From Podarcis vaucheri (taxonomy: Eukaryota), in assembly GCA_965113315.1 (NCBI GenBank), contig OZ220370.1: a DNA stretch of 64,000 nucleotides; one strand, given 5' to 3'. The notes beneath the pieces were generated by a model. That model saw only the letters and a list, made by a program, of their open reading frames with translations, was not told the DNA's origin and made no database searches. The translations under genes and the position numbers were made by a program. Shown piece by piece: positions 22,816 to 30,120 of this stretch (position 1 is the stretch's first letter; each line of letters begins with the position of its first letter).

Positions 22816-23066
22816 AATAAAAAAATTCCTTCCAGTAGCACCTTAAAGACCAACTAAGTTAGTTCTTGGTATGAGCTTTCGTGTGCATGCACACTTCTTC
22901 AGATACACACAAGTGTATCTGAAGAAGTGTATCTGAGTGTATCTGAAGAAGTGTGCATGCACACGAAAGCTCATACCAAGAACTAACTTAGTTGGTCTTT
23001 AAGGTGCTACTGGAAGGAATTTTTTTATTTTGACTATGGCAGACCAACACGGCTACCTATCTGTAA
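22816..23066. mobile_element. Penelope-like terminal-repeat element in inverted (palindromic) arrangement
   Basis: 93-bp arms 22816-22908 and 22937-23029 are reverse complements; TSD cttaaaatcaga at 22805-22816 and 23067-23078. Confidence 0.85.
22939..22976 (+). ncRNA. Minimal type I hammerhead ribozyme motif
   Basis: gtat-CTGAAGA-a-gtgtgcatgcacac-GAAA-gc-TC-atac: stem I gtat/atac, catalytic core, stem II hairpin, vestigial stem III. Mirror copy on the minus strand at 22869-22906. Confidence 0.8.
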
Positions 23067-26459: not shown

Positions 26460-28021
26460 CTCTGAAGGGGTCCAAGACTCCTCCTGCCATCTTCCCAAAG
26501 CCCTGCCTGGCTTTGGGAAAGAGCTCATGACTTGATGTTAACATTGGAAGACCCATTGCAAGGAGTTGGAACTCTTATGGACAAACTAAATGAGCTTGGT
26601 ATGTTAGCAGATTTTAAGATTCACCACCAGAAAATGAAAATACTAGCAAAGAATATGACAAGAAAACAGACGTTCAAATTGATGAAGAAAACAGGATTTC
26701 AAATTGGGGGGGGGGTGAGTTAAATATTTGGGCATCACTGTGACACATATGAACTGTACTTTTTTTCAAAATTATTATGTTAAAACATGGGCTGAAATTA
26801 AAAACAAATCAAGATGGGAGAAGTTTAAATTGTCAGTGCTTGGTAGAATTTCACTGATAAAAATGAGTGTTCTGCTTGCAATGATGTTTTTATTTCAAAC
26901 AATACCTTGTGTGAATAATGACTTGCTGTTTAAAGGATAGCAAAAATATTTATCTAAGCTTTTATGGCAAGGTAAAAAAAAAGAGCTAAAATGAAAGTAC
27001 TGCAATATGTGAAGGAAAGAGGGAAGACAGGGATGGCCTGACTTGAAATTGTACTTTGTAGCCTGTTGCTCAATTTGGATGAAGGAGTGGGTGACCTTCA
27101 AAAAATAAGAGAATTTTGGAATTAGAAGGTAATGGTTTAAGGTTTGGGTATCTGTGGTATGACAAGGTTAAAGTTATTGTGGAGTTTTAAAATTATTTTG
27201 TTAGGTGAGCTATATTGTGAGTCTGGTATTGATAGAAACCTAGGTTACATATATACAAACATACCTTTATGGACCTCAACATAAGAAGCATTTCATAGAA
27301 AAGAGATGACGGGTAAAGAGAAATGGCAAATCTATCTAGAATTATTAGCGTGGAGTGAAGGGGACTGCAGAATTAAAGCAAAGGAACAATTAAAAAGAAA
27401 TTTGGGGTATAATATTCAGATGGAACAGTGGGAACATATGTGGACTAAAGGGTTAAAATATACATTGTGTTATGACATAAAGAGGGTTTTTTTAATAAAA
27501 TGATGTACCATTGGTACTTAACTCCTGAGAAATTATTTAAAATGTATTTTAAAAAATACTCCAAATACTTGTTGGAAATGTAAAGAACATAGAGGGGCAT
27601 TTTGTCATGACTGGTGGAAAAAATATTGGATACAAAAAATATTGGATACAAATATATACATTGATACAGAGAATACATTGATAAAGATTAACTTTCAATT
27701 GAAACCAGAACACTTTCTGCTGGGGCTTATGGAAATACAGTTGGAAAAAGACTATTGAACTTTGCTTCCATATATGATTATGGCATTAAGACTTTTATAT
27801 GCACCAAAGATGGAAAGATTCATTATTACAAAAAATGGAGAAATGGTTGTGAAAATTAATGAACGTAGCTGAGATGGTGAAATTGACATGTTTAATAATA
27901 ATAATAATAATAATAATAAGCCATTGTTGACATTTGCTAAAGACTGGAAATCTCTTATAGACTTTTTGTGTCAAAATAAAAAAATTCCTTCCAGTAGCAC
28001 CTTAAAGACCAACTAAGTTAG

Positions 28022-29830
28022 GGACTTCCGGGGTTGGCGCGATCTGGAAATGGCGGATTCCCTCCGAGCTCCGGAGGGAATCGGCTCAGCGGTGGATGGG
28101 TCTTTGCCGTGCCGGCGACACGGGGACCCTTATAATCCGCAGGCGCGGATGCCTGCGGACTGAAGACTCGGTGGGCACCTTAAGCGCCCCCCCGATTCGC
28201 GAAGAGCCTTTTTAAAGGCTGCGGAGGGGATACGGGGGACGGCGCGGTGCTGAGAGTCGATTGCTACCGCCGCTGAGTGAAGCCGCGAGCCATGACTGGA
28301 GAGCGCTGACTTCCTTCCTTGAAATTTGGCTGAAAAGAAGAACCCGTGAGTAAACTAGAATTGGACTTTAAGAATTTTACCTTTTGAATTTGAGACGATC
28401 GGGGAGTGTGCTAAAAGGAAGTCCGCACCCCCACCTTGCAGACGATTCAGAGCAACGATGTAAGAACTAAGCTGGAGTGCCTACCCTGTAAAGGGTGAGT
28501 TTAAAAAGACAGTAACTTCCAAGATTTGGAAAAGTAACTTTGAGCAGGAGAGTGGAGTGTCGGAAGTCGTTTGTTTTGCTGTAAACAACCCCCCCTCCCG
28601 AGCCCGGGAGCATCCTGTTCTGGAGCCTGTGTAAGAGGTACAGAGTTTGACAGCTGTCAAACGGACTGTAAATAGTGGAAAATTGTAATTCCTCTGGATT
28701 AAAAGGAGTTACATTTGAACTAAAATTGTTGGAAATAAAGAAACAATAACAAGATTCAGGACTGTTGGAGAAAAGAACACTAAGTAACCAGATTCCCTCT
28801 AGGGGGAATTCTGTGGAATTACAATGGCTGTGGATGGAAAGATACTGGGGGAAATCGAAAGGATGTTCTATTTGGTGGGAATCTTACAAGAGCAGACTAC
28901 AGCTATGAGTGAACAATTGATGACCTTGACTTCTGAAAAAAGTAGTTCTGCTGAATGTAACGAGGACCGGAATGAGAAAGAATCCACAGCTGAACCAGAA
29001 ATGATAACTAAAGAGGAGGAGAAGACAAAACAAGAAAGAGAAGAAGTGAAGTGGGAAAACATTAACCAGAAGCTGACACCTGCAGAATACAAGCAAGGAG
29101 ACTATTGGATTAAACCTACTACAAATCTACGAAAGATGCAGAAGACGAAAGTGGAGGCCCTGGGAGTTTATGAAATTAAGGAATTTAAAATAAAGAAATA
29201 TAATTGGGGCCTCCACATAGACTCTGAATCTGATTACCTTCAAGATTTATGCCTTGTGGAAATTCTTCAGCAGCTGTTTTCAAATATGGGAAGAGACTAT
29301 GGACTGATTGTGACAGAATTCTTTCGAGACTTGATGACCGACATAAAGGATTACCAACAAGACCGGCGGAGAGGGACTGAAATAGACTTGAAAGCCTCGG
29401 ACGTGAGGAACCCAGGCTAAGAACTGTTACCTTGGACATGTTTTGGGAAGGGGCGCAAATCGGGGATGGGAGGGAGGGAAGGATTTAGTTTTAACAACAC
29501 TCAAGACCAGGGGATTTAGTCAATAAGATTATCACTTAAGACAAAATGGGAAATCGATGGAAGGGAACTGAGGTCCAACTTAGAAAAAATTTAACTTTGT
29601 TTTTCTCTATAAAAAGATTAACATTAAGATGGATAAGGAAATGCCAATTTGCTGATATAAATTTGCGAATAGGGATGCAAGGGAGGGGTGGGGGGAGGTC
29701 AACGACCAGGGTTAGAAAATAAGTTTTTCGGAAATTATACATGTTTGTTGTTTTTTCTGTTTGTTTGTTTTTGTGTTCTGTTGTTGTTTATATAAAATGT
29801 GAAAACCCAATAAAATTTTTTTCTTTAAAA
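28022..29830 (+). mobile_element. Full-length 1.8-kb non-autonomous L1-mobilised retroposon (HAL1-like)
   Basis: 18-bp TSD aaagaccaactaagttag at 28004-28021 and 29831-29848 at a TT/AAAG site; CpG-rich 5' end with aaatggcgg; single ORF; AATAAA at 29809-29814 and short A tail. Confidence 0.8.
28824..29420 (+). CDS. 198-aa charged, probably coiled-coil ORF of the retroposon (ORF1-like?)
   Basis: Uninterrupted ORF with good start context (acaATGg), E/K-rich, between the GC-rich leader and polyA signal; no recognisable domain. Confidence 0.5.
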   Translation: MAVDGKILGEIERMFYLVGILQEQTTAMSEQLMTLTSEKSSSAECNEDRNEKESTAEPEMITKEEEKTKQEREEVKWENINQKLTPAEYKQGDYWIKPTTNLRKMQKTKVEALGVYEIKEFKIKKYNWGLHIDSESDYLQDLCLVEILQQLFSNMGRDYGLIVTEFFRDLMTDIKDYQQDRRRGTEIDLKASDVRNPG

Positions 29831-30120
29831 AAAGACCAACTAAGTTAGTTCTTGGTATGAGCTTTCGTGTGCATGCACACTTCTTCAGATACACGGATTC
29901 AGATACACAGATAGACTTTTTGTGTGAAAAAGAAAAAGATATAATGACATTGGATTTGAGAACTGAAGATAATGGTTTATAGAAAATGGCTTTATTATAC
30001 AGGAGTGGATGTAGTGAATAATATTTATAAATAGCGGACAGACCAAGAATTCTTTAGCTCCTTAGCTTTCTCTCTGTCTTTCTTTTTTCTCTTCTCTCTC
30101 TCCCTTTTATTTTCTATTCC

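Follow-up and report, generated by a model that had tools for sequence, protein, structure and literature searches.

The window, i.e., the 64,000-nt stretch of Podarcis vaucheri DNA that was analysed, contains three retroelements nested in one another. The outermost is an old, decayed L1 on the plus strand, the first half of which (26523..27971, a 3′ part of ORF2) was identified by tblastn with an intact ORF2p (E = 4e-39) and has its closest paralogues at 69–82% identity, and which continues with the end of ORF2 and the 3′UTR at 29926..30100 (plus strand, 72–79% identity to paralogues). The middle layer is a 112-bp repeat on the minus strand, split into a left part identical to other copies (27972..28021, inner target site duplication (TSD) included) and a right part also recognised by its identity to other copies (29849..29910); the repeat matches other copies at 100% over 52–64 nt. 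Longer copies of this repeat run into a GIY-YIG ORF (PF01541, E = 1.5e-5, above the cut-off), and therefore the middle layer is the 3′ terminal end of a Penelope element in minus orientation, so that the Penelope identity claimed in an earlier note on this DNA is borne out by the endonuclease ORF of the parent family. The innermost layer is a full-length HAL1-like retroposon of 1,809 bp (28022..29830, plus strand), delimited by its TSDs and by near full-length relatives.

Both of the perfect nested TSD pairs claimed earlier proved to be exact repeats (plus strand), i.e., an outer pair of 15 bp (27957-27971 / 29911-29925) and an inner pair of 18 bp (28004-28021 / 29831-29848), the latter with the TT/AAAG insertion target, likewise confirmed, at its left copy. 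The outer insertion site is uninterrupted in the L1 paralogues L095, L098 and L101, where the 15-mer is single-copy; since these paralogues cross the site with one 15-mer, the outer TSD is real. The exact nested TSDs and the identified layers, together with the empty site, fix the order of insertion as it had been proposed, with the L1 first, Penelope second and the 1,809-bp element last. The nesting is ordinary and does no more than date the three layers; the inner element is the finding. The best explanation for its position is that the inner copy happened to insert into a Penelope end already sitting in a dead L1, and a preference of the inner family for the Penelope repeat, which had been suggested as a check, did not emerge, with only 1 of 30 loci in this repeat, namely the window locus itself. 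Insertion polymorphism at the window locus was considered from empty-site joints in runs X1–X4, but these joints stem from the high-copy Penelope repeat and are uninformative for the locus.

The Penelope family is very young; for a longer member, 40 copies were scored and all are 99–100% identical. In the window, its right part carries the core letters CUGA..GA / GAAA around a central hairpin at 29863-29888, which have no Rfam match and which we take to be hammerhead-like; hammerhead ribozymes are associated with Penelope ends. The GIY-YIG ORF (in the longer copies), head-to-head inverted ends and the putative hammerhead-like core are common to Penelope-like elements and the window layer, which differs in that only 112 bp of the 3′ end are present. 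Head-to-head inverted pairs of the same 3′ end are located at window 22845-23000 and at L013:4114-4228, and further copies at window 23851 and 36156.

The inner element starts with a 5′ leader (28022..28823, plus strand), a putative internal Pol II promoter that is homologous to L1 5′UTRs over its first ~440 nt and is CpG-rich as claimed (32 CpG in the first 299 nt, observed/expected 1.07). The 5′ motif that had been read as ETS/YY1-like is actually the L1 5′ terminus itself, common to L1s of the same genome; a published lizard L1 consensus carries the same terminus (PMC5381506). The 198-aa ORF was confirmed from the ORF list at 28824..29420 (plus strand) and comprises a predicted N-terminal helix (residues 3–38), a variable middle and a conserved C-terminal stretch of ~30 aa; its dN/dS and a link via basal family members mark it as a selected and likely eroded ORF1p. 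The 3′UTR (29421..29830, plus strand), weakly similar to that of an L1 clade, includes the expected AATAAA (29809-29814) and an A tail that is present but short, 3 of the 7 A of its run (29827-29833) belonging to the TSD. As noted before, neither RT nor endonuclease is encoded, this being the single ORF of the window copy, with ORF2 absent.

Both GTGAGT motifs reported in the leader are present (28346 and 28495), without use as an intron in the mobilised RNA and with no sign of leader splicing. The first donor lies 490–516 nt upstream of the ATG in nearly all of the 61 loci examined, the short leaders of L070 and L154, considered as splice products, carry deletions that are not GT-AG, and no GT-AG joint at either motif was found among the 15 joints listed of 26 (four runs, possibly RNA). 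Runs X16, X17, X19 and X20 were only guessed to be RNA, and their contigs over leader and ORF were not counted as expression. A near-palindromic CCCTCTAG(A/G)GGG motif is located just 5′ of the ATG (window 28796-28812) in all subfamilies; it also occurs in the L1 5′UTR (loci L123-L152) and is in frame with the ORF in basal family members. Five other ATGs precede the start codon of the ORF.

Copies, subfamilies and age of the family

A genome search with the inner element returned 3,366 candidates, 40 of which were scored; 38 of 41 matches were near full length at 88–100% identity, and the closest scored copy differs from the window element by 1.9%. The 30-nt 5′ core has 825 exact genome matches versus 0 for the control, i.e., at least 825 copies, with exact matching biased to young copies. 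In a sample of 60 copies (the first 60 of 63 exact-core matches listed on contig C1), the family ORF was present in 58 and intact in 49, and no L1 ORF1 or ORF2 was found within 2.7 kb in any of them. The copies have a poly(A) end and TSDs, the latter identified at 24 of 30 loci and 15–21 bp long at 23 of these, with a pyrimidine at −1 (20/24) followed by a purine-rich start.

Searches with divergent proteins yielded further subfamilies of the same layout (1.8–2.1 kb, ORFs of 175–221 aa) down to 33% protein identity. The dS between family groups is about 1.5, nested subfamilies defined by changes in common are resolved in a tree of 69 ORFs, and public DNA runs of two organisms contain family copies at ≥90%. 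The earlier note had proposed a young, protein-coding, non-autonomous family; this holds insofar as the family is multi-copy, coding and non-autonomous and the window copy is young, but the family as a whole is old and deeply branched. The overall picture is of a large and long-established HAL1-like family that was active until recently and whose protein is under selection and likely eroded. Longer fused forms of the ORF were not found among 7,991 scored candidates, which is weak evidence.

A TSD, an AATAAA and an A tail are equally common to processed pseudogenes. However, the nested subfamilies of the ORF tree, the L1-derived leader and the fact that no current L1 examined exceeds ~72% identity to this leader make it highly improbable that the copies derive from one host gene as processed pseudogenes, or that each is a separate internal deletion of a current L1. 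A single-copy processed pseudogene, named at the outset as an outcome that would refute the family, and one-off deletions of current L1s were ruled out by copy number, nested subfamilies and the sampled ORFs.

Several individual copies are unusual. At L009:763-4470 (G000:C27 near 56.216 Mb), a family member is inserted in the leader of another member, 33% identical to it, which retains an open ORF of 201 aa; one copy (L070-L080, G000:C41) was amplified with its flank to at least 8 places on one L1-rich contig; and a copy of ~1.1 kb (L197, G000:C1 near 0.597 Mb) runs from a tandemly duplicated ORF start straight into the 3′ end.

Origin of the leader and the ORF

Intact L1s for comparison were taken from the same genome, in which an autonomous L1 clade with an intact 1,246-aa ORF2 (RT and endonuclease) is co-resident with the family. 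The named relatives of an L1 ORF1p of this genome are Podarcis proteins, in keeping with a lacertid host. The homology of the leader to the 5′UTR of this clade was detected by blastn (66–72% identity, best E = 3e-18) and by nhmmer (E = 5e-43; 9e-66 for basal members), nhmmer matching only the 5′ leader in the clade and leaving ORF and 3′UTR unmatched. By local alignment, the window 3′UTR scored Z = 5.8 against the clade copy L108 (0/200 shuffles) versus Z = 0.0 against the other L1 family, and the 3′UTR of a basal copy scored Z = 2.3 against the clade; the second L1 family of the genome showed no leader or 3′UTR homology. On its blastn and nhmmer matches, the leader is shown to be of L1 origin.

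The ORF had been described as unrecognised, which stands in that the window protein cannot be matched directly to ORF1p, but basal members of the family point to an eroded ORF1. A Pfam search with the window ORF and 14 relatives gave nothing under E = 0.03, an ESM Atlas search with the window ORF gave no usable match, and the two AlphaFold models run as had been suggested were uninformative (pLDDT 41 and 42). No intact RRM is recognisable in the window subfamily, and the ORF1p profile had no match in 60 copies. A genome search with PF02994 gave no match anywhere, and at E = 0.01 the Pfam model for L1 ORF1 fails to match 18/18 true lacertid L1 ORF1ps; the Pfam blank for the window ORF therefore means little, and such ORFs are easily labelled unknown.

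An HMM search (E = 3e-10) and an unbroken series tie the window protein to the basal members, which carry the comparison with ORF1p. By hhalign, the basal profile aligned to ORF1p with P = 0.0034 and a probability of only 9.6%, starting at an internal Met near residue 47. A glocal alignment of the same profile reached Z = 4.8, 4.0 and 3.7 against three shuffle kinds (3.7 for block-order; 0/300 each), in a test that was tuned once by lowering gap costs and adopting the glocal mode after a heavy-gap local run, which itself recovered only a 12-column CTD-like motif (Z = 3.2). The post-coil half alone gave Z = 2.6–3.6, and the N-terminal 45 columns, i.e., the helix, alone gave Z = −0.6, which is not significant. 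Other comparisons with ORF1p were weaker, i.e., the whole-family alignment A2, which was negative (Z = 1.8–2.1), a window-close profile (Z = 2.0–2.3), ORF DNA alignments with ORF1 (Z = 0.3–2.6) and BLASTP of a basal member, which was not significant (E = 0.097). Among ungapped windows, 10/17 fell on two diagonals, at offsets 43–58 (coil and first RRM half) and 104–110 (CTD motif and last helix; p = 0.003 for the CTD motif as the best of 17 windows), suggesting a deletion of 55–60 residues in the RRM; a competing C-terminal register, whose end lies just past the RRM, scores as well. In the window subfamily, ~19 further residues of the RRM remnant are gone, and the window protein of 198 aa, versus 334–346 aa for ORF1p, does not encode a whole ORF1p (coil, RRM, CTD).

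An L1-ended non-autonomous element could instead carry an ORF unrelated to ORF1, captured or de novo, that is selected for a new function. Consistent with this, neither Pfam nor the Atlas nor direct comparison with ORF1 gave a match for the window protein, and its only 5 near-length relatives are all family members, none of them longer. However, the alignment of the basal members with ORF1p is co-linear and begins at the internal Met, and each of the 19 ORF1ps (Z = 2.2–6.3) outscored each of the 16 control proteins (−1.7 to 1.5), only 1 of which has a long coil; in addition, the Pfam blank is shared by true lizard ORF1ps. An unrelated ORF is thus considered unlikely, and the ORF probably descends from ORF1, with the support coming from the basal members and the window protein being too eroded to show it directly.

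Selection on the ORF

The ORF is intact in 27/30 copies chosen by DNA and free of stops in 148/150 best protein matches, which were chosen on protein score. Neutral evolution at dS 0.48 would predict ~13 stops. Frameshifting indels numbered 1 in 597 ORF nt versus 47 in 1,176 UTR nt (P = 7e-8), a contrast inflated by UTR homopolymers. Selection was measured by pairwise dN/dS and by counts of shared and private variants in a set of 69 ORFs, from which broken ORFs were left out and 7 flank-duplicated copies dropped. The ORF dN/dS was 0.44 versus a neutral value of 0.71, the latter being the expectation from the UTR transition bias; it was 0.43–0.48 in 7/8 group comparisons and 0.64 in the eighth. 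Residues 1–38 gave 0.15 and 0.14 within the two groups nearest the window element and 0.73 in the basal group, where no N-terminal constraint was seen, and the C-terminal 32 residues gave 0.25–0.40 between groups. The middle has many in-frame indels and a dN/dS of 0.4–1.0, which gives no sign of positive selection there. Synonymous changes were enriched among shared variants (P = 0.002 and 0.0006 for the N-terminus, 0.007–0.03 for the whole ORF) but not among private variants (P = 0.09 and 0.43), which is the signature of selection acting on source elements. The ORF evolves under purifying selection, and the family has amplified as a family of its own with its ORF kept by selection, as in HAL1.

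An ORF1-derived frame might also be kept only for its translation, i.e., for ribosome proximity to nascent ORF2p or for mRNA stability, with the product mattering little. The many in-frame indels tolerated by the middle (dN/dS 0.5–1.0) and ORF lengths varying from 175 to 221 aa would suit such a role. However, an open frame alone would not call for the amino-acid constraint found at both ends of proteins as little as 33% identical, and we regard selection for translation alone as improbable.

Proposed mobilisation and comparison with known systems

The reading that we favour, and hold to be probable, is that of an abundant, RT-less family with L1 ends, whose ORF likely encodes an L1 ORF1p that has been shortened and evolves fast, and whose RNA is likely copied in trans by the ORF2p of co-resident L1s. 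The family would have arisen by internal deletion of an L1 from the clade whose ORF1p starts MSG(T/S)G, an internal ORF1 Met becoming the new start codon and part of the RRM being lost. From L1 biology, transcription would start from the inherited CpG-rich promoter, polyadenylation would occur at the AATAAA, and target-primed reverse transcription (TPRT) would be carried out in trans by L1 ORF2p; the TSD length, the target bias and the intact partner L1 are consistent with such mobilisation in trans.

The most speculative step is that the protein might act in cis, its N-terminal helix joining ORF1p coiled coils and bringing its own RNA into L1 particles. Any benefit from the protein should be in cis because selection acts on element lineages, and constraint on the N-terminal helix and C-terminal motif, not on the RRM, points to assembly together with L1 ORF1p rather than to RNA chaperoning of its own. 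When residues 1–60 were modelled in complex with two ORF1p coils, the prediction was a weak pass (0.53 versus 0.01 for the best control, the controls not being known coiled coils), with runs agreeing in at least 81% of contacts and a partner pLDDT of at least 66. The pass mark was reached by 51/78 solved and 2/108 mismatched pairs, and scores of ≤0.60 comprised only 5 solved pairs and all 4 passing mismatches. On this model, an adaptor role for the protein can be put forward tentatively; the fuller version, in which the protein is no longer an RNA chaperone but a hijacking adaptor whose helix splices into L1 ORF1p coils and draws the mRNA encoding it towards ORF2p, the middle being free to turn over, appears rather doubtful. 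If true, the adaptor reading would make the family a parasite of L1 at the protein level, one that has diversified into numerous lineages living side by side, and would provide a naturally occurring minimal mutant in which ORF1p oligomerisation is separated from RNA binding.

The HAL1-like label given earlier is sustained by the L1-derived 5′ region, the absence of ORF2, the poly(A) and TSDs, and a selected family of its own; because a whole ORF1p is absent, the family is filed as a HAL1-like variant rather than a typical HAL1. We conclude that this is a HAL1-like element of independent origin, that its likely ORF1p no longer has an intact RRM, and that L1 ORF2p likely copies it. No paper on a lizard HAL1-like family came up in the literature searches, and a prior description is possible in the primary HAL1 paper, in supplements or in repeat libraries. 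The primary paper is reportedly that of Bao and Jurka in 2010. The HAL1-like strategy is present in a reptile at high copy number, and with promoter and ORF mostly intact, the copies are likely to generate insertion variation in lacertid genomes and to give rise to mis-annotated genes there.

HAL1 is described in PMC5753468 as an L1 derivative encoding only ORF1p that arose several times in mammals, and PMC3627910 cites the long-kept coding of guinea-pig HAL1 as evidence of a cis role. According to these two sources, PMC2241872 and PMC5322556, mammalian HAL1 shares with the lizard family its L1 descent, one ORF, no ORF2, poly(A) and TSDs, long-kept coding capacity and many full-length copies; PMC8535693 is a further source for comparison. 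However, the lizard family has a reptile host and a lizard L1 donor, which indicates an independent origin, and many of its lineages coexist, down to 33% identity. Rat RNHAL1 is near-identical to active L1 (98% over the 5′ 2,600 nt; PMC2241872), whereas the protein of the window subfamily has ~200 aa and no recognisable intact RRM. HeT-A (Jockey clade) and Ag-Sponge (CR1 clade) are also bipartite deletion derivatives that keep an ORF1-type protein (PMC5786205); they belong to other LINE clades, and the lizard family is dispersed, not telomeric, with a strongly eroded protein.

Why non-autonomous LINEs keep an ORF1 protein has been the subject of two proposals, one that ORF1p binds its own mRNA tightly (PMC2241872) and another that it multimerises with the protein of the autonomous partner (PMC5786205). 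With the terminal helices under selection while the RNA-binding domain decays, over graded living subfamilies, the two proposals become separable. Lizard clade-1-type L1 (PMC5381506) has the same 5′ terminus motif, a homologous CpG-rich leader and a similar 3′UTR, whereas the family lacks ORF2 and the N-terminal ~47 residues of ORF1. The same paper calls the RRM and CTD very conserved in L1, and it is these that are degraded in the lizard family.

Two Podarcis muralis database proteins, P0029 and P0030, combine a TRIM39-like RING and B-box with the coil-RRM-CTD half of lizard L1 ORF1p, a combination that is either a TRIMCyp-like fusion or a gene-model artefact.
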